The notes under the pieces were generated by a model. The model had not been told where the DNA came from. It saw only the letters and a list, made by a program, of their open reading frames with translations, and did no database searches. Positions 1-43,541 of a DNA stretch of 64,000 bases are shown here, in pieces. Source of the DNA: an uncultured Lactobacillales bacterium (GTDB taxonomy: Bacteria; Pseudomonadota; Alphaproteobacteria; CAYJES01); the NCBI GenBank assembly GCA_964369365.1, contig CAYJES010000001.1, positions 30,967-94,966 of the forward strand, written 5' to 3'. Position 1 is the first letter of the stretch. The number at the start of each line of letters is the position of its first letter. The position numbers and the translations under genes are program-made.

Positions 1-8
1 GTATCCCA

Positions 9-1145
9 TTGACTGATGAAGCAAATGATATGGCTTTAGAGAAATTAATACCTGCCTCATTAACCCTTGATAAAAATAAACATCTCGGAGTTTTGATTTC
101 CCATGCCCACCAAGACCACTTTGGCTTGATAGAGCTTGCCACTGAGCGCGAGATAGATATTTATGCGAATGAAATTACAACCAATATCATAAACGAATCA
201 GGATTTTGGCTAAGAGATCAAGATGAAGATTTGCCTATCTCAAACTTTAAAGTCGATGAATTCTTTGAAATTGGTGAGTTTAAAATAAAAACTTATAGAG
301 TCGACCACACTTATGATGCTGTGGCTTTTTTAATTTATATCGATGGCAAAAAAATCTTTTATACTGGGGATTTCAGAAACCATGGCAATGTAGATTTTTT
401 CAGCAAATTATTACAGCACGAAGAAATAAAAAATGCCGATATAATGTTAATCGAAGGTACGACCATAGGCAATGATGAAGAACACAAGGCTAAATCAGAA
501 AAAGACCTTATCCCAGAATTTGTTCAGTTTTTTAATAATCACGAAGGACTGCCCTTGATTGCCTGTTCCTCGCAAAATTTTGATAGAATTGTGAATATTA
601 TAAAAACTGCGAATTTGTTAAAAAAAGAACTTGTGATTGATATGTACACTTATAACATTTTACACACTTACGAAAATAACGCTTTAAATGGGGCATTAAC
701 AAAGGTTAAAGTTTTTCTGCCAGACAATCAAAAAATTAAAATAGTAAACTCTGAACGTTTCGATAAATTATGCCCAAAGAATCAAAGAGTTTTTGAAGAA
801 GACTTCAAAGAAAATTACAAGAATTACATCGTACTTTACAAAGCAAGTTACAATAAATTATTCTCTGAAGTTCCTGAATGTGCAACTAAGGCGAAACTAG
901 CATATTCTATGTGGCAAGGGTATTTTGAAAAAGATAAAAGACTACAATCTTTTCTTGAAAAATATAATATAGAAACAAAGCATATTCACACTTCTGGCCA
1001 TGCAAGCGACAAAGCGATAATCACTCTTGTCCAAAATATGACACCTAAAAATATCATTCCTATTCACACAATGCACGCAGGTAAGTTTTGTGAATTATTT
1101 CCAAACACAATCATTTCTTCTGACGGACAAGTTATTGATTTTTAA
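9..1145 (+). CDS. Metallo-beta-lactamase / beta-CASP family nuclease-like protein. Possibly 5'-partial: the frame is open back to the window start.
   Basis: HAHQDH (HxHxDH) MBL motif, downstream VDHTY and TGDF motifs, C-terminal HTSGHAS beta-CASP-like motif. The track start is TTG at 9 with no in-frame stop upstream within the window. Confidence 0.6.
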   Translation: MTDEANDMALEKLIPASLTLDKNKHLGVLISHAHQDHFGLIELATEREIDIYANEITTNIINESGFWLRDQDEDLPISNFKVDEFFEIGEFKIKTYRVDHTYDAVAFLIYIDGKKIFYTGDFRNHGNVDFFSKLLQHEEIKNADIMLIEGTTIGNDEEHKAKSEKDLIPEFVQFFNNHEGLPLIACSSQNFDRIVNIIKTANLLKKELVIDMYTYNILHTYENNALNGALTKVKVFLPDNQKIKIVNSERFDKLCPKNQRVFEEDFKENYKNYIVLYKASYNKLFSEVPECATKAKLAYSMWQGYFEKDKRLQSFLEKYNIETKHIHTSGHASDKAIITLVQNMTPKNIIPIHTMHAGKFCELFPNTIISSDGQVIDF

Positions 1146-1221
1146 CCATTTTTCTCCATTATTTTATACGTCGCATTTTGACGTATATTGATGATATATT
1201 TTATATATTAACAACAAAACA

Positions 1222-3273
1222 ATGGAGAAAATTATGACCGAAGAAAAAAGAATTGCCCTATACTATGCATCCATTTTATATAACACCAAAATGTCTAAAT
1301 CTTATCGTGAAAACTTCATAGATTGGGCTACAGAACATGCACCCGAGATATTTGATGAAAAACTGTATACCAACGACGTAAATGATGAATACTTTGTTGA
1401 CGACGATGATGATGAAAAGGCATTAATTAGCAAACATAATAAGTCTCATAAAAACGAAAAAAATCTTGGATTATTATTAAAAGCTGTAAAAGCGCCTAAA
1501 CGCCTTTCATGTACAGGGAAAACTTACAAAAAAGCTAATATGATTTGCGATGCATTGGGGATACATGATATTGATCGCGAAATTATAAGGCTATCTGTTT
1601 TTATAAAAGAATTTGAAACAATAAGAGACCTAATTAAAAGTGTTGAAAAAAAAGATTTTGACATTAATTTAATTTCTTGGCTATTGCAAAAACCTATTAA
1701 CTCTGTAAAACAAGCTCTAGGCGACCAATCTCCTTTAATAAAAAAAGGTTTATTAGAGTTTTCATATCGCAGTAATTACTCAAAAACTAATATATTAAAT
1801 AAAGTTCTTATATCTCCTTGCAGAAACTATAATGAAATACGGCGAGTTGTATTAGATGAAAAAGCTAAAACCAAACTTTCAAAAAAAGACTTCCAACACG
1901 TTGAAAACGAACTTAATTTTTTAATTAAAATACTAACTAAATGTTTTGAAAAAAAAGAATTAGGCGTAAATATAATGCTTTATGGCCCTCCTGGCACAGG
2001 AAAAACAGAATTTTCAAAAGTGTTATGTAAAGAATTAAAAGCAGATCTGTATATGCTTTCCGAAAATGCAGATGATCTTAAAAACAAAAGCAGATTGACC
2101 GAATTACGGCTTGCTCAGTCTTTAACAAAAGATGATAAAAACACAGTATTGCTTCTTGATGAAGCTGAAGATGTTTTCTATGGTTCTGATACCGCTTCTA
2201 AAATGTATGTTAATCGCGCACTTGAAAAAAACCAAACCCCTGTTATTTGGATAAGCAATAACATAAGGTGGATGGATCCCGCGTATTTACGTAGATATAC
2301 TTATGCAATAGAGTTTCCAGAACCACCCGAAAGCGTACGTGAAAGTTTATGGAAAAATATCGCAAAGAAAAATAAATACAAACTATCCATTAAAAAAGCA
2401 AAAGAATATGCAAAAAAATATGAAATTGCGCCTTCTTTTATCAACAGAGCGATACGGTCAGCAGCACTTTTAGATGACGAAAGTGCTATTGATAAAACAA
2501 TCCAAAGCCTTAAGAAAGCTATTACAGGAAAAGATTTTACTAAAAACGAAACTGATAAAAATAAAAAAAAATATAATGGCGAATATAACACAAACTTTAA
2601 TACTGACATACTTAACACCGATATTGATTTAAAAAAACTTGCAATGAGCCTTAAAAATAAAGAAACAAAACGATTTTCTTTGTGTCTTTTTGGGGCTGCA
2701 GGAACTGGCAAATCTGAATATGCAAGGTACCTTGCAAATGAATTGAAATTGCCAATAATCCACAAACGAGCATCAGACTTAATCAGCAAATATGTCGGTG
2801 AAACAGAACAAAATATTGCAGAAGTATTTAAACAAGCAAAAGAAAAGAAATCACTATTAATCTTTGATGAAGCAGATAGTTTTTTACAAGACAGAAGCCT
2901 TGCTCAGAGAACGTGGGAGGTTTCCAGCGTAAACGAGATGCTAACATGGATGGAAAATCATCCATACCCATTTATTTGCACCACAAATTTAATGGAAAGT
3001 TTGGATAAAGCGAGCTTGCGACGTTTTACATTCAAGGTAAAATACGACTATTTGAAATCTGAACAAGTTCAAAAAGCTTTCAAACACTTCTTTAATAAAG
3101 ATGCAAATCTTGGTGAACTTATAAACCTGGGTCATCTTGCTCCTGGAGATTTTATGGTAGTGAAAAATAAAGCAGAGATTTTAGAAATAGAAAATCGGTT
3201 CGACCTTATCGAAATGCTACAAAGCGAACAAGAAGCGAAAGGCATAATCACAAAACCTAAAATCGGCTTTTAA
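1222..3273 (+). CDS. Tandem AAA+ ATPase: ~230-aa N-terminal domain of unknown type followed by two classical AAA modules. The start is more likely ATG at 1234, which has GGAG 8 nt upstream.
   Basis: Walker A GPPGTGKT and GAAGTGKS. Walker B LLLDEAED and LLIFDEAD. Sensor-1 and Arg-finger segments ISNN...LRRYTY and CTTN...LRRFTF. Confidence 0.7.
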   Translation: MEKIMTEEKRIALYYASILYNTKMSKSYRENFIDWATEHAPEIFDEKLYTNDVNDEYFVDDDDDEKALISKHNKSHKNEKNLGLLLKAVKAPKRLSCTGKTYKKANMICDALGIHDIDREIIRLSVFIKEFETIRDLIKSVEKKDFDINLISWLLQKPINSVKQALGDQSPLIKKGLLEFSYRSNYSKTNILNKVLISPCRNYNEIRRVVLDEKAKTKLSKKDFQHVENELNFLIKILTKCFEKKELGVNIMLYGPPGTGKTEFSKVLCKELKADLYMLSENADDLKNKSRLTELRLAQSLTKDDKNTVLLLDEAEDVFYGSDTASKMYVNRALEKNQTPVIWISNNIRWMDPAYLRRYTYAIEFPEPPESVRESLWKNIAKKNKYKLSIKKAKEYAKKYEIAPSFINRAIRSAALLDDESAIDKTIQSLKKAITGKDFTKNETDKNKKKYNGEYNTNFNTDILNTDIDLKKLAMSLKNKETKRFSLCLFGAAGTGKSEYARYLANELKLPIIHKRASDLISKYVGETEQNIAEVFKQAKEKKSLLIFDEADSFLQDRSLAQRTWEVSSVNEMLTWMENHPYPFICTTNLMESLDKASLRRFTFKVKYDYLKSEQVQKAFKHFFNKDANLGELINLGHLAPGDFMVVKNKAEILEIENRFDLIEMLQSEQEAKGIITKPKIGF

Positions 3274-3321
3274 TATTCAAATAAATTTGATATGATACGT
3301 TAAAAAAGAAAAGGATGTAAA

Positions 3322-3930
3322 ATGAAGTACAACCAACTAAAAGACATATTAGAAAAACTCGAAAGCAAATATAGAGATACTAAATTTCATAAAGATAATT
3401 ATATGCGACAATATTTTGTCCTAGATACGAATGCAAAAGAAAATGATAAAGATTTGCCAATTGTCATCGTTGTCGGAGCTAATTATTGGCAATATGGGGG
3501 TGAAGAATACAAGGAGTTCTGTTTAAATGGAGTTGAAGAACCTAAAAAAGATGCTACAAATACACGAATTAAAAACTTTTTAAACAACCATATTAATAAT
3601 TCTTTCAACACTGACCCTATTGGTGATTTCCACCTAATTTTCACCAACCTATCTCCTTATATTGCGAAAGAAGGATGGGATGAAATTGATAAAAAGGAAA
3701 AAGAAATACTTTTAGCAGAAGCTGAAAATTTAGGTCATATTAATGAATTAGCAAAAGAGCTGGCAGATAAAAAGGAAAATTTAATTTGGATTGGCCACAC
3801 AAAATCCATTTTTGAACAATTAGAAAAAAAGCTTACTAGCATTTGCGAGATTAAAGAAAAATTTTATCTCTGTAATAATCTAAGCCGGTGCAACAATCCT
3901 AACTTTCAAGAAGTGAAGAAAAATGACTAA
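3322..3930 (+). CDS. Hypothetical protein (202 aa), translationally coupled to the downstream GGCT-like gene.
   Basis: AAGGA RBS 7 nt upstream of the ATG. 8-nt overlap with the next ORF. No recognisable motif. Confidence 0.5.
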   Translation: MKYNQLKDILEKLESKYRDTKFHKDNYMRQYFVLDTNAKENDKDLPIVIVVGANYWQYGGEEYKEFCLNGVEEPKKDATNTRIKNFLNNHINNSFNTDPIGDFHLIFTNLSPYIAKEGWDEIDKKEKEILLAEAENLGHINELAKELADKKENLIWIGHTKSIFEQLEKKLTSICEIKEKFYLCNNLSRCNNPNFQEVKKND

Positions 3931-4336
3931 CGAGTTTTATTACTTTGGATATGGTAGCAATATGGATTGGGCTCGAATGAAAAAAAGATGTCCTGAATCT
4001 GTTGCTATTGGGGTTGCGAAACTGCCAGAACATAAGGTTGTTGAACGCAAATTTGCGGACATAGAACCTTGCAAAAATTCCACTGTTTTCGGTGTACTTT
4101 ACAAGATATCAGAAGATGATTTAACCGCCTTAGACCATTATGAAGGTTACCCTGATGGCTATGACCGCAAATACATCGATGTTTATTACCAAGATCAAAA
4201 GCATAAAGCTATCGTGTACGAAATGACCGAAAGCTATAGAGAGTTTAATCAAGATATTCCATATTCGGATGAATATAAAAAACTATGTTATGATGCAGCT
4301 GCGCATTGGGATTTACCTATTAACGCATACGAATAA
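3923..4336 (+). CDS. Gamma-glutamyl cyclotransferase (GGCT/AIG2)-like protein.
   Basis: N-terminal YFGYGSNM motif characteristic of the GGCT/AIG2 fold. Size 137 aa. Confidence 0.55.
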   Translation: MTNEFYYFGYGSNMDWARMKKRCPESVAIGVAKLPEHKVVERKFADIEPCKNSTVFGVLYKISEDDLTALDHYEGYPDGYDRKYIDVYYQDQKHKAIVYEMTESYREFNQDIPYSDEYKKLCYDAAAHWDLPINAYE

Positions 4337-4341
4337 AACTA

Positions 4342-5310
4342 TTAATATTCAGGCAAGCTTTCCCAGAAATTTGTTGGCTTTATTACCTTTACCTTATCGC
4401 CCCAAGTGTATAGATGCCAAGACATTTCACGTCTACCTCCTGCCCTAAATTTCACCAAAAGCGATCCGTCTTTTTTGCGTTTTACTTTTTGAGTGGGGTG
4501 GAAGACATAACGTTCTGCCTCATCTGCCGCTTCTTTTGCAAATAACCATTCAACATCAAAAGGTTCTTCTTGATAGGTCCCAAAAGAATTTTCAACATAT
4601 TTTTCAAGTGAAAATTTTGCATCTTCTTCAAAGGTTTCTTTTAAAATCGTTACCTTTTTAATATTTCCAAGAATATAATAGCGCAGCTCACCTTTTGACC
4701 TTCCATCAACATATTTTGCTAACAAATAATGATTCCTATCTCCATAAACAAAACCCATAGGTATAAGTTTAGTATAATTAATTTTCCCGCTAGATTGATT
4801 AAAATAATCAATTTTGATTTGTCGGAAAGAGTGCAATGCGTCTCTTAACACACTAACGATAGTGTTGTCCATTTTTATCTTAGGACCAGGGCGTAACGCA
4901 AGCCCTTCTGATTTCAAAATATCCTCGACATCCATTGCAACGCTAGATTTTGGCTTTATCAATGATAAGAATTTATTTCTTGCTGTTTCTAAATTCTTTG
5001 CTTTTTCATCTAGGTTATTTTTTTGCAAATGTTTAATCGCACTATTAATTGCTGCAAGCTCACTTTTTGTCAGACTTGCCAACCCTGTCAATTTATTGGA
5101 AGTTAATCTGAAATGCTTTTTATTATCATCTCCATATTCTTCTAAAAAATCTGCAGCGAAATAGTTTGCGATTGCATTTCGCATACGCTCTGCAGTTCTT
5201 CTGCCTACACCAAATCTTTCTTGAATGTCATCTAAGGTTATTCCTTCGCTATTGCCTTGCATCATAAACGCAAGGTCAAACATATCCAACATCTTCCCAT
5301 AATTTTCCAT
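4342..5310 (-). CDS. HTH + WYL-domain transcriptional regulator (BrxR/CapW-like). The track's TTG at 5340 is probably an over-extension; ATG at 5310 has GGAGG 10 nt upstream.
   Basis: N-terminal winged-HTH-like segment (ITLDDIQERFGVGRRTAERMRNAI). Central WYL-like segment (KLIPMGFVYGDRNHYLLAKYVDG). Size ~320 aa. Confidence 0.55.
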   Translation of the reverse strand: MENYGKMLDMFDLAFMMQGNSEGITLDDIQERFGVGRRTAERMRNAIANYFAADFLEEYGDDNKKHFRLTSNKLTGLASLTKSELAAINSAIKHLQKNNLDEKAKNLETARNKFLSLIKPKSSVAMDVEDILKSEGLALRPGPKIKMDNTIVSVLRDALHSFRQIKIDYFNQSSGKINYTKLIPMGFVYGDRNHYLLAKYVDGRSKGELRYYILGNIKKVTILKETFEEDAKFSLEKYVENSFGTYQEEPFDVEWLFAKEAADEAERYVFHPTQKVKRKKDGSLLVKFRAGGRREMSWHLYTWGDKVKVIKPTNFWESLPEY

Positions 5311-5314
5311 ATTG

Positions 5315-6454
5315 CTAAACCTCCATAATTTTTTTAGCAATTTGCATTATTACTTCATCAATTTCATTTATCTTTTTTATTAAAGTTTCTTTTGATATCA
5401 AAAAATCATTTTTTTTACTTGTCAATAAAACATCACCTATTTTGGTTGTTTGTGCTGTTTTTGATATTTTCAGCTTTTCTCTTGATTTTTTGAACCCTTC
5501 AACTTTTTCCAATTCACATTTTATTTTATTAATCATGTCCAATCGAACCTTAGATGATCTGAACTTTTCATATTTCACCCTTATATCTATTTTATTCTTT
5601 TTCGAAGTTTCCTCTTTGTCGTATCCAAGAACTGAGTAATATAAAAACATTCTGTTTGATATATCAAACCCTTTTATTTTTAAAGCATTATCTTTTTTCC
5701 ATCCGTCATAGAGAAAATACCATTTATTTTGTTTATCATTTACACATATATCATTAAAAAAACCTTGCCATGTCCATTTAGACCAATTCTTCAAATCATT
5801 ACATTCTTTATACTCATCTGTTTTTTTATTAACATATGTCCAATAATTAAAAAATTCATCAATTATCCACATATCTTTATTAACATTACTTTCTAATGAA
5901 TTTAAAAAATCCACTCTATCAAAAAGGGTGTATTTCTCCTTATCTAACATACCCTTAAAATCTTTATTATTTAAAAAATTTCCTGTTTTTGTAACGATGC
6001 CAAAAATATCATTTTCTTTAAAACCTTTTGCTTCTACAATTTTTCTATACTTAGATAATTGAGATTCCTTGTCGTTGTTATTTTTTTTATTTTTCGCTTT
6101 TACTTCTTTTTCTTTTTTGCTTTTTTTTATATTGCTATCATGAATATCGGAATCTGTTTTATCTTCTATAATAAGGGCTTTTTTTATATTATTATTTTTA
6201 TCAACCTGCTCAAAATAAACTAACACATCGATATTGTCTTTTTGAACTTTCACCTCTGTTATTTTATAATCCCCTTCTATTCCAGCCTTTTCAAATAATG
6301 CATCGGCGAATGATTTTCCTGCTTTATGTAAATTATCATCTTTTTTTTCATTTTCTTCTCGTGACCATTCAAGGAGCCAGGCGATAAAGGCATCTTGCGA
6401 CAACTCTTTCGTTGCAAATTGAAATAAATTTGGTTTTTGAAGTTGATTTGTCAT
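5315..6454 (-). CDS. Hypothetical protein with a putative N-terminal PD-(D/E)XK nuclease core and a Lys/Asn-rich C-terminal half.
   Basis: AAGGAG RBS. Motifs DVLVYFE ... LIIEDKTD resemble the D...(D/E)xK catalytic core. This is inference. Confidence 0.4.
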   Translation of the reverse strand: MTNQLQKPNLFQFATKELSQDAFIAWLLEWSREENEKKDDNLHKAGKSFADALFEKAGIEGDYKITEVKVQKDNIDVLVYFEQVDKNNNIKKALIIEDKTDSDIHDSNIKKSKKEKEVKAKNKKNNNDKESQLSKYRKIVEAKGFKENDIFGIVTKTGNFLNNKDFKGMLDKEKYTLFDRVDFLNSLESNVNKDMWIIDEFFNYWTYVNKKTDEYKECNDLKNWSKWTWQGFFNDICVNDKQNKWYFLYDGWKKDNALKIKGFDISNRMFLYYSVLGYDKEETSKKNKIDIRVKYEKFRSSKVRLDMINKIKCELEKVEGFKKSREKLKISKTAQTTKIGDVLLTSKKNDFLISKETLIKKINEIDEVIMQIAKKIMEV

Positions 6455-6505
6455 TATACATCTCCTTTTTATTATTTTAAATATTAACCTTATGACGCTT
6501 CTATA

Positions 6506-7522
6506 TCAAATATTGTCATTATTATCATTACTCTGTGAAGAGCAAAAACATACATCATTATGTTTTATATTATATTTTAATCCGATTAAGTCTTCTAAGA
6601 ATTCTTTTTTTTCTTGCTTAAACTTATTAAATACATCTTCTATTGATACATGAAAACAATTCTTACCTTCCATTTGCTTGCTACTATCTCGAGAAAATAG
6701 TATATATATTTTATCATCTGATTTTGGTGACCCATTAAAAATATTCGTATAACCTGAATTACCATCAAATTTAACTTGAGCGTACAAATAACAACCGTCA
6801 GAAAATCGGCCTATTATATCATAAATTGCTAAACTTTTGCCTACTCTTACATTACTGTATTCATATTTTTTATCTTTAAACCAATTTAACCGCAAGTACT
6901 CTTCGCACATTTGCTCTACCGCTTTATAATGCATTAAATCTATGGATAAATCTATTTGCTCTCCTTTATAAATAAGAGGAATTATTGTATTATATATAGG
7001 AGATTTTGGTCTACATATTGTATTGTAAGGAGGCCTGGCTGATAATAAAGCAGGATAATCTTCATAAAAAATTTCCTTTACGTTTTTTATAGTTAGATAT
7101 TTCATTGGAAACATATTATCTTCAACGTCTTTTATTTCGTCGCTATCTATCTCCCCTATAAGAATTTTTTTTACTTGAACATCATCTACTAAAAGTTCAT
7201 ATTCGGCTACTATAAGAATATTATTTTTGTTTTTTATTATATTTTCAAAAGTTTTTTGGATATTTAACATATTTTTTAATGATTTTTCATTTGCATTTTC
7301 AAGCAATTTAGGTTCATTATCTTTATAATATTTTTTAGCTAAGTTTATCAAAGAATCATTATCATTATCATACTTTTTATAATCTTTATATGAAACAGGA
7401 AAATGGCCAAAACATATTCTTTTTTTATCAAATGCTCTTTGTGCGAAATTATTTTTTCTTTCATCTTCCGTTTTACAATATTGTAAAAAATTATGCCTTA
7501 TAAAATAAACTTCTTTTTCCAT
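6506..7522 (-). CDS. Hypothetical protein (~338 aa). Start is probably ATG at 7522 (AAGGAG 8 nt upstream) rather than the track start at 7555.
   Basis: ORF lies in an operon with the flanking nuclease-like genes, with 10-nt and 52-nt gaps. No confident domain assignment. Confidence 0.45.
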   Translation of the reverse strand: MEKEVYFIRHNFLQYCKTEDERKNNFAQRAFDKKRICFGHFPVSYKDYKKYDNDNDSLINLAKKYYKDNEPKLLENANEKSLKNMLNIQKTFENIIKNKNNILIVAEYELLVDDVQVKKILIGEIDSDEIKDVEDNMFPMKYLTIKNVKEIFYEDYPALLSARPPYNTICRPKSPIYNTIIPLIYKGEQIDLSIDLMHYKAVEQMCEEYLRLNWFKDKKYEYSNVRVGKSLAIYDIIGRFSDGCYLYAQVKFDGNSGYTNIFNGSPKSDDKIYILFSRDSSKQMEGKNCFHVSIEDVFNKFKQEKKEFLEDLIGLKYNIKHNDVCFCSSQSNDNNDNI

Positions 7523-7532
7523 ATTTTTCTCC

Positions 7533-8984
7533 TTATATTTTACTATACAACACATCTATCAACTTTGCCATAGCAAGGGTGTCTTGGTGGCAGTATTGGG
7601 TTAGACCTGAGAACAGAGTTTGTTCTTCTTCCTCTGATAGTTTGTTTTGCATAAATGATAGGTATCTATCCATTGCTTCGCCGCCGTTTGCTATTTCCAT
7701 ATCGTCATAGCTTAGGTCGGTGAAAGCTGGCAACACATATTTGATAGAGTTTGAATTTTGTTGTTTTGGATTGTATAAAACCCTGTCTCTAAATGGCTTC
7801 AACAAATCAATCATACGGGCGTTAATTGATAAAATATCAGAGTTTAAATCCGGAAATAGATTTGCAAGTTCTTTATTCCTAGTTTCTTCAAATGCTTGAT
7901 TATATACGATAACAGATCCTTTTTTACCGCAACTATCAACCAATTTTTCGGCAAACAATCTGCGAGGGTCTGATTTTTCTTTATGAAGAAACTCGATATG
8001 TTCCAGCGTCCCTCCCTTTTCTTTTTGAATATGGAGCGAAAATTGAAACGGGATTTGGTTGTAAGTTCCGCTGTTATCAAACAAAGGAATTGCTGGTTGG
8101 ATTGTTTCATAATCAAGATAATATAATGGATATTCCAACGTATCCAAAAATTCTTTTATTCTGTCTTTGTCGACGTATTCTTTGTTATCAATGAACGCTT
8201 GCACAGCCACCTTTGCCGCATCAGAACATTCTGGCAAAATATCAGGCGTGATTTCTGCGCTTTTCCTTTGGATGTATAGCTTGTCAGCCTTTGGATTTCG
8301 AATAACATCAAAAAGCGAAAATTCTGGGATATCTTTACCACAATAATGATAAAATTGACAGCCTTTGCACGCCTTATGAAGTTCTATTTTTGGTTCTGAT
8401 TTTCCTTTTTGGATTTTATAAAATTCTAAAGCTTTTTTTTGCACGTCGTGATACTCATATTCCACTTGTTCAGATACATCCGTTAAGGTAAATAACTGTT
8501 TAACATCAATCTTGCCATCTTTCTTATATTCCTTGTTAAAATGCAAAACATAACAGCTTTTTATTGGATAACCAGCTTGCATAAACACATAACGTTGAAA
8601 GGCCAAATCGACATAATGTTCTGATTTTGCTTCGTTAGTAGCCTTTATTTCAATCAAATCCCAGCCGTTAGAGTTCCTTTGCATTACGTCAATTCGGCAG
8701 TATGCGCCCCAAGTGGTTTTTGCAAAAGCCTCAAATAAAATATCGTGCTTTTTGCTTTGTTCTTGAGTTATCAAACAACCGCCTGTGATGTTCCAATAGT
8801 CTGCTTCCACCATATAACCGCCATCAAAGAAATCACGTGCAAGGTCTTGAGTTTCATTACCCTTATCAAAAATGGCTTGCAATTCTTGTGGGGTAGGAGG
8901 AATCAAATCTTTGCGATTTTTCTTTAACCACAAGGCCTTAGCACAATCCAGCGCCATCATATAGTCAGATTTTGATAAAAACAT
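7533..8984 (-). CDS. Fusion protein: N-terminal Cas4/RecB-like PD-(D/E)XK nuclease with Cys cluster, plus C-terminal DnaQ-like DEDD 3'-5' exonuclease. Possibly DUF2779-like.
   Basis: AGGAGG RBS 6 nt upstream. Nuclease motifs WDLIEIK (D..ExK) and QRYV (QxxxY-like). Cys cluster CKGCQFYHYC plus N-terminal Cys. Exonuclease motifs YLDYETI (Exo I, DxE), VYNQAFEE (Exo II, NxxF[DE]) and YCHQDTLAMAKL (Exo III, HxxD). Confidence 0.5.
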   Translation of the reverse strand: MFLSKSDYMMALDCAKALWLKKNRKDLIPPTPQELQAIFDKGNETQDLARDFFDGGYMVEADYWNITGGCLITQEQSKKHDILFEAFAKTTWGAYCRIDVMQRNSNGWDLIEIKATNEAKSEHYVDLAFQRYVFMQAGYPIKSCYVLHFNKEYKKDGKIDVKQLFTLTDVSEQVEYEYHDVQKKALEFYKIQKGKSEPKIELHKACKGCQFYHYCGKDIPEFSLFDVIRNPKADKLYIQRKSAEITPDILPECSDAAKVAVQAFIDNKEYVDKDRIKEFLDTLEYPLYYLDYETIQPAIPLFDNSGTYNQIPFQFSLHIQKEKGGTLEHIEFLHKEKSDPRRLFAEKLVDSCGKKGSVIVYNQAFEETRNKELANLFPDLNSDILSINARMIDLLKPFRDRVLYNPKQQNSNSIKYVLPAFTDLSYDDMEIANGGEAMDRYLSFMQNKLSEEEEQTLFSGLTQYCHQDTLAMAKLIDVLYSKI

Positions 8985-9028
8985 AATCCCTCCTAATTTA
9001 TATTTTAGATTAACAGCCTATCATTTAT

Positions 9029-9868
9029 TTAGCAATTGTTTAATTCCATAACAAAGTAAAAATTGAAATAATTACTTTTCACTACATAAACTTTTAACTT
9101 GTTTTTCCATTCTTCTGTAAAATTCTTATCTTTTTTCTTTTTACCTTTTTTATAAAAATCTCGCCATACTGAAAAATATGGATCTTCAATTTCTATTACA
9201 TTATCAATATAATTAAACGGCTTTAAGTTTTTGGAAAAAACATCTTGTATATTAAAATAGTTTTTCTTTCTTATTGATACATATTTTTTACATATAATGT
9301 GTACTTGATACTTCTCAGCCATTTCTTTTAATTTTTTAACTATATACTCATCAATATTTTTCTTTTTTTTGTTACGCTCTATTAAAAAATATTCTTCTAT
9401 ATAAACCACTTCAGACATTGATGCATTTTTTATAATCTTTTCAATCTGTTTAAAAGAATATTCAAAATTGTGATAAGTTTCTATTGGATAATGTTTATAC
9501 TTTTTGACTTCTTTTTCAAGTTCATTAATATCTAAATTTTTGATTTTTTTGGCATCGCAAAAATCGCTTTTTAAAATATTTTTGTAATGAGAGAAGTTAT
9601 TATCTCCCGCTATCCATAACAAATTTCCATCTTCATTTTGGCTCAACTTATCAGCAATTCCTAACATAATACTTTTATCAAATTTCTGTACGATTGAATT
9701 TCTAAGGGTTGTATTGACAATAAATGTCACTTCGCCCTTACGAAAACCCTGAATAGCATTATCAATTTCTTTTATTCCACAACAGGCGCCTTGCAAACCT
9801 GATTTAATTTTTTTAGCTTCTTCTATGAAATTATAAATACCTTGCTGCAATGTCATATTTTTATACAT
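9029..9868 (-). CDS. Hypothetical protein (279 aa), possibly a degenerate RecA/DnaB-C-terminal-like pseudo-ATPase.
   Basis: AAGGAGG RBS 6 nt upstream. SGLQGACCGIKEIDNAIQGFRKGEVTFIVNTT resembles the DnaB/KaiC strand-P-loop region but lacks GK[ST]. Confidence 0.3.
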   Translation of the reverse strand: MYKNMTLQQGIYNFIEEAKKIKSGLQGACCGIKEIDNAIQGFRKGEVTFIVNTTLRNSIVQKFDKSIMLGIADKLSQNEDGNLLWIAGDNNFSHYKNILKSDFCDAKKIKNLDINELEKEVKKYKHYPIETYHNFEYSFKQIEKIIKNASMSEVVYIEEYFLIERNKKKKNIDEYIVKKLKEMAEKYQVHIICKKYVSIRKKNYFNIQDVFSKNLKPFNYIDNVIEIEDPYFSVWRDFYKKGKKKKDKNFTEEWKNKLKVYVVKSNYFNFYFVMELNNC

Positions 9869-9937
9869 TTTAACCTCCTTATTAAATATCTATAAAAAGG
9901 ATAAAACTTATTTCCGACAAAGTATGTCGTATTACTT

Positions 9938-10447
9938 TTATTGAAAAGTTGTAATGTGCTCCGGATATGGCTTTATATTGTTCAGTTTATCTGCAAAAAA
10001 TGCGGGATATGCCTCATATTCTCTTAACTTTTCAATCGGCAACCATTCCATTCTTTCGGTTATTTCGCCGTTGAAAGTTTTGCTTTCTTTGGTTATTTCA
10101 ACTCTTTTACCTTTTGGCTTCATCAAAAAGAAAAAAGTTATTTCGTGGCATGCAAGCCCACTTAACATCCCGTCTTTTCGTTTGAAAAAGTTTTCTTGAA
10201 CAAATGCAAGCCTGTCTATTTCATAATATATGCCTACCTCCTCAGCCACTTCACGCAGAACGGCACTCTCTGCACTTTCACCTATTTCAACTGCCCCACC
10301 AATGGAATAATAATAATTTTCAGAATCATTCGTTGCAAAAAGAACATGATTTTCTTCGATTATAATTGCCGCTGCCCGCAACCTAAACCGCTTATTATCC
10401 GCTGTCTTATAACATACATCTTTAACTTCACTATTTACTATATTCAT
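9938..10447 (-). CDS. NUDIX hydrolase.
   Basis: Nudix box GGAVEIGESAESAVLREVAEEVGI (Gx5Ex7REUxEExGU). Confidence 0.75.
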   Translation of the reverse strand: MNIVNSEVKDVCYKTADNKRFRLRAAAIIIEENHVLFATNDSENYYYSIGGAVEIGESAESAVLREVAEEVGIYYEIDRLAFVQENFFKRKDGMLSGLACHEITFFFLMKPKGKRVEITKESKTFNGEITERMEWLPIEKLREYEAYPAFFADKLNNIKPYPEHITTFQ

Positions 10448-10466
10448 TTTATTTTTCTTTTATTTC

Positions 10467-10910
10467 CTATTCATAAATGCAGAAATGTTGATTTTTTGCT
10501 ATTAAATCAATTGCCTTTTTAACGTGGGGCAAAGTTTGTTCAGGCAGGTTATTTATATCAAAAAAAACAATTTCTTCGCATTTTTCTGGTTCGTTATTTT
10601 GAATTTGTCCTGAGAATTTTGTAGCTTTGATAAAAATATCAATTATATCGGTTGGATCGCCTTTATATGGCGCATTTGGACGTTGCATTGTTAACACAAC
10701 TTGCAAATCTTCTGGGGTTATGTCTATTCCTGCCTCTTCTTTTGCCTCTCTGATTATTGCATTTATAACTGTTTCGCCTTTTTCAGTGTGCCCTGCAATC
10801 ATGCTGTATTTACCAGCCAAAATTTCAGATTTACTTTTACTTAATAACACCTTTTCATCTTGGATTAATACTAGATACGCACCTATTAATGGTCTTTGAT
10901 TTCCTGTCAT
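10467..10910 (-). CDS. NUDIX hydrolase (second, adjacent paralogue).
   Basis: Nudix box AGHTEKGETVINAIIREAKEEAGI. Confidence 0.75.
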   Translation of the reverse strand: MTGNQRPLIGAYLVLIQDEKVLLSKSKSEILAGKYSMIAGHTEKGETVINAIIREAKEEAGIDITPEDLQVVLTMQRPNAPYKGDPTDIIDIFIKATKFSGQIQNNEPEKCEEIVFFDINNLPEQTLPHVKKAIDLIAKNQHFCIYE

Positions 10911-10912
10911 AA

Positions 10913-11587
10913 CTAATCTTTCCTTATTAAAATGTGATAGTGATAACTTTGACTTAGCTCGCCTTCTACTTCATAATATCTGCAAACGTGTTCAAGGTCA
11001 ACTATCTGAAATTCTTTGAATAACTCGCCTATTAAATCATAATCAGCATAAAAATGCGGAACTTTATATTCTGGACCTTGATCCATTCTAAGTTTAGTAT
11101 TTTCATCAACCATAGGCCAATCTTTTTTAAATCCCCACGTGTCCTTTGACCCTAAAGTTAGGTAACATTCCCCACCAGATTTAAGAATTCTATACAATTC
11201 TTTTATAATCTGCTTTACGCCATTTGTGTCGGTGTGAGAGATTACGTTTCTGCATAAAATACAGTCCATAGAATTATCTTGATATGGCAGATTTAACATA
11301 TCTCCTATGGCAAAATCGACAATAAGATTTTCCGTTTCTGCCCATTCTTTTGTTCTGGCTATGGCATTTTCACTTATGTCAAATGCAAACACATTAAAAC
11401 CATTTTTTGCAAATAAAATAGAATGCCTGCCTAAACCACAACCCAAGTCCAAAATTTCTTTTTTATGTTGAGAAATCCAACGACTAAGCAAATAAAAACT
11501 TTCCGGAGCAGGATTTTTCCAAACATTTTCATTGTCCCCAGAAACTATTTCCCAATTCCAACCAACCGATTTTATTATTTCATTCAT
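10913..11587 (-). CDS. Class I SAM-dependent methyltransferase.
   Basis: Motif I ILDLGCGLGRHS. Acidic motif II FAFDISE. Confidence 0.7.
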   Translation of the reverse strand: MNEIIKSVGWNWEIVSGDNENVWKNPAPESFYLLSRWISQHKKEILDLGCGLGRHSILFAKNGFNVFAFDISENAIARTKEWAETENLIVDFAIGDMLNLPYQDNSMDCILCRNVISHTDTNGVKQIIKELYRILKSGGECYLTLGSKDTWGFKKDWPMVDENTKLRMDQGPEYKVPHFYADYDLIGELFKEFQIVDLEHVCRYYEVEGELSQSYHYHILIRKD

Positions 11588-12084
11588 TTTGCACCTATCA
11601 CTTTATTTATATCTTTATCATTTTTTAAAATTATAACTTTATTAAAGTATTTTTCTTTTAAGGTATTAATATTCTCTTTTCCTTTTTTAAGATTTTCAAA
11701 ATTCCATTTTATTAGATTTATAATACTTTTGAATGTTTCGCCTTTACTTGCTAAAACACCTAACTTTCGTAGCAAAAATCTTTTTAAAATTCTAAAATTC
11801 CTAATATGAATATTTACATCAAGAACATAAATTTTATCAGCATTTTCAAAAGATTCATAAAGCCATGAAAAATATATACCTTCAATAATATAGTTCGAAT
11901 TTTGCATAAAGTCTTTTAATAATTTATGGCGTTCTTCTTTGTCTCTTTTTTGTCCGTAACCTTTTACATTATTATCCCAAAATATATCGTCAAGTTCAAG
12001 TAGAGGAATATTATGCTGTGACACAAGCTGTTTTGCAACGGTTGTTTTTCCACTGCCACTTTCGCCGATTATATGAATTTTCAT
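11584..12084 (-). CDS. P-loop NTPase / small kinase (adenylate-kinase or topology-modulation-like).
   Basis: Walker A IIGESGSGKTT at the N-terminus. Size 166 aa. Confidence 0.6.
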   Translation of the reverse strand: MKIHIIGESGSGKTTVAKQLVSQHNIPLLELDDIFWDNNVKGYGQKRDKEERHKLLKDFMQNSNYIIEGIYFSWLYESFENADKIYVLDVNIHIRNFRILKRFLLRKLGVLASKGETFKSIINLIKWNFENLKKGKENINTLKEKYFNKVIILKNDKDINKVIGAK

Positions 12085-12111
12085 ATATTACTGTCCTTTA
12101 AACTTTGCATT

Positions 12112-12639
12112 TTAATAATTTTCTATATGCGTCAAGTAAGTTGGAGGAATTATTCCATTTTTTAACACAATAAGATAATACGGAAGAAAGTAAAATCTTC
12201 TACCTTTTTCATCATTACAAACCGACCAATCAATAGAAGACAAATCAATATCATTAATATCTTCTAGCTTAATTAAAATTTCATCTCCGTTATAATTTTC
12301 TTCTACTGTATTTATATCAGCGGGAGGAGAATAATAAATATCTTCCAACAATCCATCCTTTTCAAGAGATAAAATATCAATAGATAGTAAATCAGAATTT
12401 TGAATAAACTCTTTAAGAGATAAACTTTCATCATGCCATTGAACGGGCTCAGTTAAAACGCGAACAGATTTAGACCTACCTTTAAAACTTTCCTCCATCC
12501 AATTAACAATTTCTAAATGAGTTTTAGCATTTGCACGTTTTTTATAATATCCTAATTCTGCATTTGGATTTTTAGCAAAAGATAAAATACCTTCTTCTAA
12601 AACTTTACTTCCTTTGGGCACATAATGATAAATTTTCAT
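12112..12639 (-). CDS. Hypothetical protein (175 aa).
   Basis: ORF lies in the co-directional gene array. No motif recognised. Confidence 0.4.
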   Translation of the reverse strand: MKIYHYVPKGSKVLEEGILSFAKNPNAELGYYKKRANAKTHLEIVNWMEESFKGRSKSVRVLTEPVQWHDESLSLKEFIQNSDLLSIDILSLEKDGLLEDIYYSPPADINTVEENYNGDEILIKLEDINDIDLSSIDWSVCNDEKGRRFYFLPYYLIVLKNGIIPPTYLTHIENY

Positions 12640-12706
12640 GATAACCTCTCCTTACTAAAATATTATAGAGGAAATTATGTTAATAAGCTATTTAAACAGC
12701 AAAACT

Positions 12707-13348
12707 CTATTTCTTAGATGGCATAGGATCGTGATAGCCTGCTATTTCGCCATTGCCTATGCGCCATAAATACAAACTTGCCACAGACGCATAAGGAGAA
12801 TATCTGTTTTTATATTTTTCAAATAGCTGCTTAGTGATTTTCTTATGACGATATAACATTCTTAAACCCCTTTGAATTATCAAATCATCATAGGCTATTA
12901 TATTCATTCGGTTCATTGAAAAAATCATTAACATCTGGGCTGTCCATTTGCCTATTCCTTTTAGGTTTGATAGTTTTTCACAAACCGCTTCATCGTCTAA
13001 ATCAAATAGAGATTGCAAATCCAAGTTGCCTGCAACAATTTCATTGGAAACATTTTTAATGTAATCAACTTTGCGATACGTTAACCCGCAAGATTGCAAT
13101 TCGTCATCAGAAAATTTTAATATGTTTAGGGGAGTAATTTCACCCACTTTATCCCTAAACCGTTCATAGATGGTAACGTGAGCTTTCCTGGAAATCTGTT
13201 GACCTATTATTGCATTAATCAGCGAATCAAATAAATCTGGATAGGTTTCTCTTTTTATGAAACCAATTTTATCAATAGCCTCGCCTAAACGCTTATCTTT
13301 TGACTTTAAATGGTTTAGGTGGCTTTCATCATATTCTAAAAAATTCAT
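12707..13348 (-). CDS. HhH-GPD DNA glycosylase (AlkA/3-methyladenine glycosylase II-like).
   Basis: HhH-GPD region LKGIGKWTAQMLMIFSMNRMNIIAYDDLIIQRGL with the catalytic Asp. Confidence 0.65.
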   Translation of the reverse strand: MNFLEYDESHLNHLKSKDKRLGEAIDKIGFIKRETYPDLFDSLINAIIGQQISRKAHVTIYERFRDKVGEITPLNILKFSDDELQSCGLTYRKVDYIKNVSNEIVAGNLDLQSLFDLDDEAVCEKLSNLKGIGKWTAQMLMIFSMNRMNIIAYDDLIIQRGLRMLYRHKKITKQLFEKYKNRYSPYASVASLYLWRIGNGEIAGYHDPMPSKK

Positions 13349-14683: not shown

Positions 14684-15874
14684 TTAGATTTTCCTTTTTT
14701 TGTAAAATTTTCTTTTGTTTTTTACACCTGCCACAAAACCCAATTTAACAAGCAATTGGATAATTGCCAATAATAAAACACAAATCATAGGCGAAGTAAA
14801 ATCAGCTATGAGACCAAAAATATACATAAAAATGCCTGTTGCTATTCCTTTTATAAAAGCAATTATAGAACCCATTGTTGCCCTTTGTTCTGAGGTAAAT
14901 TCTTTTTGCATTATTTCTTTATTAGACGTCAGGCTTGGTCCATAAAAAAGATTAGAAATGCTCATCAAAAATGGAGTTACAAAGGTATTCATCAAAACTG
15001 AAATAATTTTTATCACTGATGAGGCTATCAAAGAAGTGAATAAAATTTTGATAGTACTATATTTTTTTAATCTAGGAACAATGAAAAAGCCCAAACCTCC
15101 ACAGATTTGTTTAAACGCTTTTGCTACCGTTACCACCCAAATAGGAACCAATGTAGCGAAATAAGCAAGTTCAAAACGATGCGAAGTCATTCCTAACGAA
15201 TTGCTTATTATATTTATAGAGGAAAAAAACATTAACTTTCTATTTTTTATTATTTCTTTAAAGGCTTTTACAAAATGACTTAGGCTGTTTATTTCGTGAG
15301 TTTTGGTTAATTTAGCTGGCTCTATATAAAAACAAGCAACAATTAATGACCCTAAGATAGGAAGACAAGAAATCCACGCCAAAACAACCATATCAAAATA
15401 ATATGTGATAAAAGCCGCACTTATTGCTGCCGAACCTAGCCCTACTTGATTCCAAAAATTATATCTGGAAAAAAGTACTGAAAAATCTCGTTTATCACCT
15501 AATTCCTCCATAGTTTCATACATAAGAGCTTCATCAGTTCCTGATAAAAAAGCATCACTTATCCCAAATAAGACAGCCCCAATAAAAAGCAATAAAATAT
15601 AATCAAAAGTTCCAGCCAATGCCCATAAAAGTGCTGATAAAACAAAAAGAAATCCTGATAAAATTAGCGTTTTCTTCCTGCCTATTTTATCGGAATAAAT
15701 GCCTGCTGGTATTTCCATTATTGATTGAATAATGAATGAAGTTGAAAACACCAACATCGCCGTTGCATAACTGTTTGTTATGCTTTCGAAATAAACAACA
15801 AACAATGCCGACAGAGGAAATAGCCCATCGAAAAATCCATTAATTTTAAAAAGTGTTATATTGCGTTTAATCAT
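14684..15874 (-). CDS. MFS-type transporter (~12 TM).
   Basis: Hydrophobic TM-rich protein. MFS signature-like DKIGRKKTLILSG loop. Paralogue of 19531..20712. Confidence 0.7.
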   Translation of the reverse strand: MIKRNITLFKINGFFDGLFPLSALFVVYFESITNSYATAMLVFSTSFIIQSIMEIPAGIYSDKIGRKKTLILSGFLFVLSALLWALAGTFDYILLLFIGAVLFGISDAFLSGTDEALMYETMEELGDKRDFSVLFSRYNFWNQVGLGSAAISAAFITYYFDMVVLAWISCLPILGSLIVACFYIEPAKLTKTHEINSLSHFVKAFKEIIKNRKLMFFSSINIISNSLGMTSHRFELAYFATLVPIWVVTVAKAFKQICGGLGFFIVPRLKKYSTIKILFTSLIASSVIKIISVLMNTFVTPFLMSISNLFYGPSLTSNKEIMQKEFTSEQRATMGSIIAFIKGIATGIFMYIFGLIADFTSPMICVLLLAIIQLLVKLGFVAGVKNKRKFYKKRKI

Positions 15875-16470
15875 ATATTTCTTACATCTTCTATTGAATT
15901 AAATAAAACGGCTTGCATTCCTAATTCTTTTGCTGTTGCAAAGTTTTTAGGGCAATCATCTATAAGAACCATTTCGCAATAAGGTATCCCTAATTCTTTT
16001 TTTACATATTCGAAAAAACCTTTTTCTGGTTTTGCTATTCCTATTTTTGCAGATGTAAAAACCTCATCAAATAAAATATGCCATTCTGAAAACTTGTTCC
16101 ATAAATAATTCATACGAATATGAGGCTGGTTCGATGCTATATGAAGATAATGACCCTGTTGTTTTTTATTTTTTATCCATTCAAACACATCTAAATTAAG
16201 CCTTGCATCACGCGACAACCAATATTCTAACAACTCATCCGAAGTCATAAGTATCTTATGTTTTTCAATAAATGGAATTATATAATCGTTTATTTCAGTG
16301 TTTGCAAAAAGCGCCGTTATAAAATTATTATCAAACAGCTCTTCAAAAATATTTCCATTAATTCCAAAATCATTTTCAAAATTTTCTACCCAATAAAAAT
16401 GCTCTTTGCCATTTTCATCAGTGTAAAAAGCATCAAGCAGTGTATTGTCTAAGTCTATTAAATAATGCAT
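15871..16470 (-). CDS. HAD-superfamily hydrolase.
   Basis: N-terminal DxD (IDLDNTL). Distal LIDD motif typical of HAD phosphatases. Confidence 0.6.
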   Translation of the reverse strand: MHYLIDLDNTLLDAFYTDENGKEHFYWVENFENDFGINGNIFEELFDNNFITALFANTEINDYIIPFIEKHKILMTSDELLEYWLSRDARLNLDVFEWIKNKKQQGHYLHIASNQPHIRMNYLWNKFSEWHILFDEVFTSAKIGIAKPEKGFFEYVKKELGIPYCEMVLIDDCPKNFATAKELGMQAVLFNSIEDVRNI

Positions 16471-29005: not shown

Positions 29006-29638
29006 TTACTTTTCTATCCAAATATAACTATTTTGCCTTAATGCTTTTTCTTTTTGTCTGCGGTATGAATAAAAACTATCTTTCATTGAAAATGTACACA
29101 TATCAATGCCGAAAATATTTTCTTTAGGTATTCCCGATTGCATTAATTGATGATTTGTTAATTCCCACAAGTTCATAGTTTGATTACATATAGAAAACCA
29201 CCCTATAAAATCTTGTCCCCATTCGCTGTCAAAATTTATAAATTCAGAAACTTGTGGAGACAAACTTGGTCCTCTTACAGCCATTATATCATTTGCCGAC
29301 ACATTATAAGTATTGCAAAATTCATCAATGGCTTTACCTATGAAATTTATCCTATTCCCGCGCCAACCAACATGAAGCGCCATTATATATTTTCCACTTT
29401 TATGTGATATTAAAATAGACTGACAATCTGCTGTTTTAATTTTTAAATATATTCCTTTTTCATTTGTGGCATGTCCATCTGCTTGCGGTTGTTCTGACAA
29501 TATGTCTGGATTAAAAATAACACTGTCTTGATGCACTTGATTAAGCTCTCTTGTCAAATCTCTATCAAGATTCAAATCTTCCTTTATTGTCCCAAAAAAA
29601 CATTTTACATTCTTTATTTTTGGGAAAGAAAATTCCAT
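29006..29638 (-). CDS. YfiH/PgeF (laccase-domain, DUF152) family protein.
   Basis: HVGWRGN motif. Size 210 aa. Confidence 0.6.
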   Translation of the reverse strand: MEFSFPKIKNVKCFFGTIKEDLNLDRDLTRELNQVHQDSVIFNPDILSEQPQADGHATNEKGIYLKIKTADCQSILISHKSGKYIMALHVGWRGNRINFIGKAIDEFCNTYNVSANDIMAVRGPSLSPQVSEFINFDSEWGQDFIGWFSICNQTMNLWELTNHQLMQSGIPKENIFGIDMCTFSMKDSFYSYRRQKEKALRQNSYIWIEK

Positions 29639-43476: not shown

Positions 43477-43541
43477 GATATTTGCTTGTAAAAAATCACA
43501 AAAGTGTTTATTATAATCCAAGAAACAATAAGGAGTTTATC

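Follow-up and report, generated by a model that had tools for sequence, protein, structure and literature searches.

The window analysed here is a 64-kilobase (kb) stretch of DNA, positions 30,967 to 94,966 of contig CAYJES010000001.1, and its left end (1-9868) holds nine genes, in a region that a first-pass annotation had described as a candidate defence island. We found that these genes combine a conserved core with local cargo. The core consists of a tandem AAA+ ATPase (gene B) and a WYL-domain regulator (gene E), joined facultatively by a DUF2779 gene (H) and occasionally by a metallo-beta-lactamase (MBL) gene (A), together with a palindromic operator, and it spans the clusters on both strands. 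The nine-gene set as a whole is unique to this genome and is not to be taken for a system in itself.

Layout of the locus

The open reading frame (ORF) list and four profile libraries placed the nine genes across 1-9868 in two convergent clusters. The ORFs described by the first-pass annotation are real and its domain calls hold. Its inventory of 9-9868 was right for eight genes, but gene A is cut off at the left end of the window, and gene I (9029-9868), the ninth, had gone undescribed. The genes and the two predicted operators, with distances in nucleotides (nt) and base pairs (bp) and protein lengths in amino acids (aa), are as follows.

1..1145, plus strand: gene A, MBL/beta-CASP-type metallo-nuclease (Lactamase_B_2 and RMMBL), 5'-truncated at the window edge
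1166..1186: operator 1 (predicted), ATACGTCGCATTTTGACGTAT, a perfect palindrome with 7-bp arms, in the A-B spacer, 67 nt before the B ATG at 1234
1234..3273, plus strand: gene B, tandem classical AAA+ ATPase with an N-terminal helical and winged-helix domain (PF00004 twice)
3322..3930, plus strand: gene C, 202-aa protein without a family, local cargo
3923..4336, plus strand: gene D, GGACT/AIG2-like protein of the gamma-glutamyl cyclotransferase fold (PF06094)
4342..5310, minus strand: gene E, DriD-family transcription factor with winged helix-turn-helix (wHTH), WYL and WCX domains, last gene of the minus operon
5315..6454, minus strand: gene F, divergent PD-(D/E)XK nuclease of PDDEXK_4 type (PF14281 in homologues), local cargo
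6506..7522, minus strand: gene G, near-orphan with a putative EVE/YTH-like (PUA-fold) N-domain and a PD-(D/E)XK-like motif (from model and motif)
7533..8984, minus strand: gene H, Cas4-like Fe-S PD-(D/E)XK nuclease fused to a DEDDy 3'-5' exonuclease (PF11074, DUF2779)
9029..9868, minus strand: gene I, 279-aa orphan with a faint likeness to the DnaB C-terminal (RecA-like) domain, first gene of the minus operon
9912..9932, minus strand: operator 2 (predicted), ATACGACATACTTTGTCGGAA, 63 nt before the I ATG

Transcription of the minus operon runs in the order I-H-G-F-E, with intergenic gaps of 44, 10, 51 and 4 nt, and on the plus strand D overlaps C by 8 nt. The separation of the convergent stop codons by 5 bp (4337-4341), reported in the first pass, was confirmed, and no terminator-like hairpin lies in this gap. 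If both units were induced by the same regulator, the transcripts of each would be expected to run into the other, with possible antisense or collision effects. Strong Shine-Dalgarno sites had been claimed for all genes; we found GGAG-type sites upstream of B, E, F, G, H and I (six of the eight complete genes), but C has a weaker one (AAGGAT) and D no clear one. Translation of B could start at 1222 or 1234, and ATG 1234, which has GGAG 7 nt upstream and yields the 679-aa product on record (P0004), is most likely the true start. Every product looked up (B to I) formed a singleton cluster. Scans of the window for tRNA genes and Rfam families were empty.

Regulator E, its operators and the conserved core

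Regulator E carries WYL (PF13280) and WCX (PF25583) domains. When it was compared by phmmer with all PDB sequences, the only matches were entries for DriD of Caulobacter crescentus (8tp8, 9pfq, 7tzv and others; E-value 2e-52), with residues 6-313 aligning to DriD 9-311 at 36% identity, essentially over the full length. The structures of BrxR, CapW and PafBC went undetected with this query at an E-value of <=0.01. The WYL domain named in the first pass is thus present, and the likeness to BrxR and CapW proposed there gives way to a different placement: by sequence, E is a WYL regulator of the DriD clade, outside BrxR/CapW.

DriD is a transcription activator of an SOS-independent damage response and is itself activated by single-stranded DNA (ssDNA) (PMC9186387). 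R37 and R41 recognise its operator, assisted by E40, R36, T38 and R43 (PMC10853764). E and DriD share the helix GVGRRTAERMR without a single difference, the recognition helix RRTAERMR included, so that the base-reading residues R37, E40 and R41 and the phosphate contacts R36, T38 and R43 are all kept in E. In an alignment of 13 sequences, E and 12 AAA-linked WYL homologues, RTAER-R is invariant. Among the residues through which DriD contacts ssDNA, Y168, S172, Y192, R204, Y240 and R288 are kept in E, and W206 is replaced by Y. The AAA-linked WYL proteins are 34-41% identical to DriD whatever their taxon, the alphaproteobacterial ones being no closer than E, and these identities place them as a sister group of DriD rather than as orthologues. 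From this homology we infer that E senses ssDNA and that it activates rather than represses its targets.

The published DriD operator consensus is ATACGAC-N7-GTCGTAT (PMC10853764). We searched the window with a pattern taken from it, TACGNC-N7-GNCGNA, and found two matches in 64 kb, against 0.05 expected by shuffling; there was no third copy anywhere in the window, and no box directly upstream of the E start codon. Both operators are intergenic and each stands ahead of the first gene of its unit, operator 2 within the 69-nt gap between a Nudix stop codon and the I start. B-C-D and I-H-G-F-E are therefore probably best regarded as one regulon under E, which, given the operator upstream of I-H-G-F-E, would control its own synthesis through the I promoter. 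A promoter and terminator scan gave no more sites than shuffled controls, and -35/-10 elements could not be placed relative to the boxes.

Conservation was examined in a locus set anchored on B homologues, with one genome per species (80 loci with 10-kb flanks), which was compared by tblastn with the nine window proteins and by all-against-all ORF clustering. These loci span the Alpha-, Beta- and Gammaproteobacteria, Campylobacterota, Elusimicrobia, Nitrospira, Acidobacteriota, Latescibacterota and Desulfobacterota. Full-length homologues of E (35-51% identity) were present in 25 of the 80 loci by tblastn and in 33 by clustering, and were mostly the immediate neighbour of the ATPase gene, arranged as AAA>WYL> or WYL<AAA>. 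Homologues of H (28-55% identity) occurred in 10 of the 80, mostly adjoining the AAA+/WYL pair. An MBL gene related to A was found in one (L015, directly upstream of the ATPase gene as in the window) and, in addition, in locus L082. C, D, F, G and I were absent from all of the approximately 170 related loci scanned. The undescribed combination announced in the first pass therefore holds for the AAA+/WYL core with its operator, and not for the nine-gene set; the check that it had proposed, conservation of the neighbourhood, came out in the same way.

The operator is conserved along with the genes. In 1.34 Mb of related loci, 13 of 40 strict operator matches fall <=130 nt upstream of an AAA+ ORF (0.31 expected; binomial P=3.5e-18), and the box typically lies 57-73 nt before the ATPase gene. 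Comparative evidence of this kind strongly suggests that the WYL protein directly controls the ATPase and nuclease genes. Since the two clusters of the window carry the same operator, and since B, E and H co-occur in other genomes, the convergent clusters appear to be functionally linked, as the first-pass annotation had supposed.

Individual loci show how the core is arranged. The closest relative of B (49% identity) lies in L082, together with a WYL gene (48%), an MBL gene (33%) and two GmrSD genes, and boxes there precede the WYL gene, the MBL gene and the AAA+ operon. L082 also holds DUF2828/DUF7788, a phage-type S-adenosylmethionine (SAM) lyase and six DriD-like boxes. In L015 the A homologue is likewise 33% identical, and in both loci it lies directly upstream of the AAA+ gene with a DriD box before it. 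In L004 a WYL gene, two orphans, a DUF2779 gene and the ATPase gene all run in the same direction as one cluster, and unrelated orphans occupy the position between WYL and DUF2779. L008 has just the three core genes, next to a GmrSD gene, with a box between the divergent WYL and DUF2779 genes. Duplicates occur: Rheinheimera maricola (L081) has two AAA+-WYL pairs within 6 kb, and in L002 two tandem AAA+ genes (689 and 688 aa) follow one WYL gene. In the Rhodobacterales (L012, L016, L017, L018, L032, L084 and L085) a second operon with a DriD box comes after the AAA+-WYL pair; it encodes an ADP-ribosylglycohydrolase fusion, sometimes a HEPN protein, an AddB-like PD-(D/E)XK nuclease, an AddA-like UvrD helicase-nuclease and a 404-aa unknown. 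Its box lies 61-65 nt before the ADP-ribosylglycohydrolase gene, on chromosomes and plasmids alike; the HEPN gene is present in the Fuscovulum copy (L084, Fuscovulum pRsa), and L085 is a Leisingera conjugative plasmid. The nearest relatives of E and H come from metagenome-assembled genomes of rumen and gut origin that carry the label Rhodospirillales or Alphaproteobacteria, and from a human-gut contig.

The ATPase, the nucleases and the local cargo

PF00004 matches B twice, behind an N-terminal region of about 230 aa. In an alignment of 18 homologues, GxxGxGK, DE, N and RR are invariant in both AAA domains, so that each keeps Walker A and B, the sensor-1 asparagine and the paired arginines of the second region of homology. 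A pore loop (KYVGE) can be read in the second domain (D2), and the pore-loop aromatic residue is missing from the first (D1). These features fit a Cdc48-like protein translocase with one threading ring, and B would accordingly be expected to act as an unfoldase. More than 500 homologues of B were found, and phrog_10401 covers it almost end to end. The likeness of B to IetA is restricted to its AAA core (D2; PADLOC 2e-40, NCBIfam 1.6e-34): NF042959 scored 119.7 bits against a cut-off of 510, on the core only, and the PADLOC IetA profile was covered at positions 122-268 of 374. As a separate observation, L082 encodes at 14854-15912 a 352-aa protein whose likeness to B is limited to the N-domain and the first AAA domain (residues 99-360, 26% identity) and which may be a split or truncated B paralogue in the same island.

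H matches PF11074 at 2.8e-44 (150.8 bits against a cut-off of 23.3), Cas_Cas4 at 9e-8 and RNase_H_2 at 3e-6, and a comparison with PDB sequences was empty. In an alignment of nine homologues, three sets of residues are invariant: the cysteines C14/C206/C209/C215, the D...ExK set D99/E112/K114/Q130 and the DEDDy set D291/E293/E366/Y464/D468. With all three sets present, H is judged to be intact in both halves, a predicted Fe-S Cas4-type nuclease joined to a predicted DEDDy 3'-5' exonuclease. To our knowledge, DUF2779 is a large nuclease family without a known role, and one member is reportedly quasi-essential in a minimal Mycoplasma cell. The family is known from predictions only (PMC3985635, PMC13621843), and its DEDD domain resembles the mitomycin-repair exonuclease MrfB (PMC13621843).

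A matches Lactamase_B_2 (7e-14) and RMMBL (1e-5), with a weak likeness to RNase J and beta-CASP proteins. Since no in-frame stop lies upstream of position 9 and its relatives are 415-426 aa long, A must be cut by the window edge, with its promoter out of view. An RNase J identity for A was rejected, the RNase J model scoring 63.6 bits, far below the family cut-off of 400. A separate RNase J-family gene lies at 54120-55796 on the minus strand (383 bits against 400 for TIGR00649; 411 against 820 for RNase J1), which makes A an extra, divergent enzyme of beta-CASP type.

The remaining products are local cargo or near-orphans; for C, F, G and I, Pfam scans at relaxed thresholds returned nothing above noise. 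By sequence, G resembles no known family. Its predicted N-domain adopts an EVE/YTH fold, followed by an E...D...QxK motif, and we tentatively propose G as a candidate modification-dependent nuclease in which an EVE-type reader of modified bases would be coupled to a nuclease-like motif. EVE-PD(D/E)XK proteins are a recognised class of predicted modification-dependent restriction enzymes (PMC7641849). Only two relatives of G were found among 5.8 billion proteins, and the single one on a long contig (P0003, L001) has a different gene context. F has no direct Pfam match; its homologues (identity up to 36%, best E-value 1.7e-21) bear PF14281, and the motifs D(V/L), IIEDK and QLSKY can be read in order in its sequence. 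C matched nothing in Pfam, NCBIfam, PHROGs or PADLOC. D matched PF06094 at 8e-15 (55.9 bits against a cut-off of 22.8) and phrog_2520 at 6e-23, and D-like proteins are encoded by phages (phrog_2520). I resembles the RecA-like C-domain of DnaB faintly (TIGR03600 at 4e-5, far below the cut-off), no GKT or Walker A P-loop motif could be read in its sequence, and a single homologue (27% identity) was found among 1.84 billion representatives.

Beyond the island, the window belongs to a Gram-negative organism of low guanine-cytosine (GC) content (about 31%), with genes for an RND efflux pump, for Nuo subunits, for a chemoreceptor, for NrdD and for an RpoD of proteobacterial type; an LD-carboxypeptidase gene is also among the ordinary flanking genes. 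Directly upstream of the minus operon and on the same strand, 9938-13348 holds genes for two Nudix hydrolases, a SAM methyltransferase, a small P-loop kinase-like protein, a 175-aa unknown and an HhH-GPD DNA glycosylase, and no DriD box precedes them. Two further observations concern more distant genes. A 1052-aa protein with a subtilisin/mycosin-like protease core is encoded directly downstream of the RND efflux pair (AcrB-like and AcrA-like), an unusual pairing (29638-32796 and 32847-37063, both on the minus strand). A 1192-aa ORF with a TTG start (43482-47060, plus strand) had no NCBIfam match at an E-value of <=1e-10.

Candidate functions and comparison with known systems

We propose that the island is an inducible module against phages or plasmids that degrades invading DNA upon an ssDNA signal, a reading to which we give an even chance or slightly better. 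By analogy with DriD, an E dimer of wHTH-WYL-WCX type would bind ssDNA arising from DNA damage or from replicating or restricted foreign DNA. The ssDNA-loaded regulator would then bind the palindrome ATACG(A/T)C-N7-G(A/T)CGTAT before B-C-D and before I-H-G-F-E. B, once induced, would act as a hexameric Cdc48-like tandem AAA+ unfoldase with its pore loop in D2, and its winged-helix N-domain could anchor it to nucleic acid or to a partner. The nucleases induced with it, H, F, G and probably A, would attack DNA ends or foreign DNA, H contributing a 5' Fe-S Cas4-type nuclease and a 3'-5' DEDDy exonuclease. The AAA+ and WYL genes would be the horizontally mobile core, sometimes accompanied by DUF2779 or MBL genes, and the remaining genes would be swappable cargo.

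The defence role is suggested by the company that the module keeps. GmrSD/DUF262 genes abut it in L006-L009 and L082, and SIR2 neighbours also recur around it in related loci. On Rhodobacterales plasmids it is followed, behind the same box, by HEPN, ADP-ribosylglycohydrolase and AddAB-like genes. Its distribution is patchy and non-syntenic over several phyla, sometimes with duplication and on plasmids. One and the same slot is taken by unrelated orphans in different genomes, and G, with the EVE fold of its model, resembles known modification-dependent restriction enzymes. The neighbouring GmrSD, HEPN and SIR2 genes, together with the plasmids, favour an inducible defence module, and the context is defence-island-like, as the first-pass annotation had it. 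Its further statement that no named defence system matches was borne out: PADLOC gave, for the nine proteins, only core-AAA matches to IetA/TRIP13 and generic WYL and Cas4 matches. A defence function is plausible, and the repair reading described below fits the regulator equally well.

Several observations weigh against the defence reading. No PADLOC or NCBIfam defence model is satisfied by the nine proteins, the GC content of the island is the same as that of the rest of the window, with no island-like shift in the composition profile, and the right flank is ordinary housekeeping sequence in which no integrase or tRNA was seen. DriD itself governs DNA-damage genes rather than defence, and nucleases of the Cas4/AddB-like, DEDD/MrfB-like and beta-CASP kinds serve repair too. 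Four of the 11 ssDNA-contact residues of DriD are changed in E (R176N, R178T, K202E and R207I), so its ligand could differ from that of DriD, and a promoter scan in DNA this rich in AT gives no discrimination between activation and repression. The model of G is of moderate confidence, and its nuclease half is called from a motif. When the comparison was reversed, 80 metagenome loci with H-like genes contained the ATPase in 4 and a WYL gene in 7; H is therefore a facultative partner rather than a defining one, and the DUF2779 link runs one way.

DNA repair in the service of the host chromosome is a possible alternative that we regard as rather unlikely. In that case E would sense resected ssDNA and induce end-processing nucleases (H, F and A), along with an AAA+ remodeller that frees damaged DNA of proteins, for example in protein-DNA adducts or stalled complexes. 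Cdc48-type unfoldases are indeed known to pull proteins from chromatin in eukaryotic repair. E is a DriD homologue with a DriD operator, and DriD activates a damage response, as do DdaA and PafBC (PMC9186387, PMC12392091). The nucleases belong to types that process DNA ends, the MrfB-like DEDD domain of DUF2779 among them (PMC13621843), AddAB-like helicase-nuclease genes stand behind the same box in Rhodobacterales, an HhH-GPD glycosylase gene lies 3 kb from the island, and the window copy sits among ordinary genes without a GC anomaly. Core damage-response regulons are usually conserved within clades, however, whereas this module is spread patchily and out of synteny, on plasmids and in duplicates among other places; its operon carries hypervariable orphan cargo, GmrSD, HEPN and SIR2 neighbours recur, and G has, in its model, an EVE-reader fold. 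The defence and repair readings share the same regulatory mechanism, and in Moraxellaceae one WYL activator, DdaA, serves both damage response and defence (PMC12392091).

The module might instead belong to a mobile element, as the damage-sensing switch of a plasmid, integrative and conjugative element or prophage that governs escape, superinfection exclusion or counter-defence, with the AAA+ protein acting on proteins of the host or of competitors. B homologues with at least 80% query coverage occur on 15 plasmid records, including the conjugative Leisingera plasmid, where the copy is flanked by insertion sequences. The nearly full-length match of phrog_10401, the AAA+-WYL pair in two of seven IMG/VR relatives, a resolvase gene adjoining the module in L004 and the phage-type SAM lyase in L082 point the same way. 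We nevertheless hold this to be improbable, since most loci are chromosomal and no integrase, transposase or tRNA lies beside the window copy within the available sequence. A phage origin was also considered and rejected; full-length relatives of B number only about seven among 2.9 million viral contigs (IMG/VR) and one among 50,697 phage records. Finally, the two clusters could be unrelated neighbours that converge by chance, the WYL protein regulating something else, as might be thought from the five of nine genes that are not conserved with the rest and from the DUF2779 genes that mostly occur without the ATPase. This was already disfavoured and is highly improbable: the only two operators in 64 kb coincide exactly with the two promoters, the AAA+ and WYL genes keep their adjacency and the operator its position across phyla with the enrichment given above (P=3.5e-18), and the same core genes form one co-directional cluster in L004.

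On a broader view, and with a confidence that stays short of an even chance, the AAA+/DriD-like pair may lie at the centre of an immune or DNA-surveillance system that is inducible, widespread and so far undescribed. In it, the WYL protein would sense ssDNA and thereby switch on a Cdc48-like unfoldase that bears a winged-helix N-domain and works with interchangeable nuclease effectors. As part of the same tentative proposal, these effectors would include the Cas4-DEDDy fusion and the MBL/beta-CASP, AddAB-like, GmrSD and EVE-nuclease genes. If this were so, it would be the first bacterial defence built on a tandem classical AAA+ protein-unfolding motor under the direct transcriptional control of a DriD-type sensor.

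WYL-regulated islands as a kind, DriD and DUF2779 were already known. Our search of the literature on DUF2779, DriD, CCNA_02375 and WYL proteins with AAA+ proteins yielded no account of this module, in a collection that is incomplete, so that a prior description is possible. Three features appear to be new within the literature searched: this tandem AAA+ family is a conserved partner of a DriD-type regulator, its gene is preceded at about 60 nt by a conserved operator, and DUF2779, MBL and AddAB-like nucleases have been recruited to a DriD-type regulon. WYL regulators gate both the DNA-damage response (DriD, PafBC and DdaA) and phage defence (BrxR and CapW). Here a DriD-type regulator, whose operator is preserved in Alphaproteobacteria, Nitrospira, Acidobacteriota and a low-GC gut organism alike, is tied to an uncharacterised tandem AAA+ family and to DUF2779. 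The result is a regulon open to testing, in which the 21-bp site and the promoters are defined and an inducer is predicted; it gives access to two orphan protein families and offers a system for probing the boundary between DNA repair and immunity. Cultured carriers exist in Fuscovulum blasticum (pRsa) and in the Leisingera conjugative plasmid.

Comparison with known systems set several candidates aside. BREX and CBASS were rejected, since no PADLOC model of either matches any of the nine proteins. IetAS, in which the AAA+ ATPase IetA reportedly works with the protease IetS (attributed to Gao et al., 2020), shares with B the AAA core of D2, but B has two AAA domains and a winged-helix N-domain; this identity too was rejected, as the IetA score is below the cut-off and confined to the core, and the island encodes no IetS-type protease. 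CRISPR adaptation was rejected because no Cas1 or Cas2 rose above noise in the nine proteins, the only match being Cas1g at 1.3e-3 on the Cas4 segment. With no Cas1/Cas2 among the island proteins, H is a solo Cas4-like protein. It resembles the solo Cas4-DEDD nucleases of DUF2779 (PF11074) in its Cas4-like N-half, its C-half of DEDD(y) RNase-H fold and its intact catalytic residues, and, unlike Mycoplasma MMSYN1_0389, it keeps all four Fe-S cysteines.

Other likenesses concern single components. The modelled EVE/YTH N-domain of G would be shared with EVE-PD(D/E)XK proteins and with PUA-fold type IV enzymes (VcaM4I, McrB-N and MspJI), the modification-dependent restriction enzymes that were reportedly treated by Bell et al. 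in 2020; GmrSD, another type IV enzyme, holds neighbouring positions in related loci. B, with its two classical AAA domains and a pore loop in D2, recalls Cdc48/p97 in chromatin extraction, a resemblance that we offer as an analogy only. The actinobacterial locus of PafBC and the Mpa/Cpa AAA+ proteasome offers a further analogy, in that a WYL damage regulator appears linked to an unfolding AAA+ machine, but the island has no proteasome or Pup genes and the N-domain of B is different.

Further parallels are with the regulators. DriD (CCNA_01151) and E have the same layout of wHTH, three-helix bundle, WYL and WCX, an identical DNA-reading helix, the operator CGNC-N7-GNCG with an AT-rich centre, and 7 of 11 ssDNA-contact residues in common (W206 to Y counted). 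E is nevertheless not an orthologue of DriD. It is the last gene of a five-gene operon, and its predicted targets are the AAA+ ATPase and nuclease genes linked to it in an accessory island, in place of didA, recA, recJ, bapE and dnaG. The BREX and CBASS islands are repressed by BrxR and CapW, whereas the DriD clade consists of activators; CapW also senses ssDNA (PMC11662680). DdaA of Moraxellaceae links the damage response to defence genes (PMC12392091), and its site, CGWCA-N5-TGWCG, contrasts with the N7 spacing of the E boxes. What BrxR, CapW, DdaA and E share is a WYL regulator that lies inside, and apparently controls, an accessory nuclease/ATPase island.

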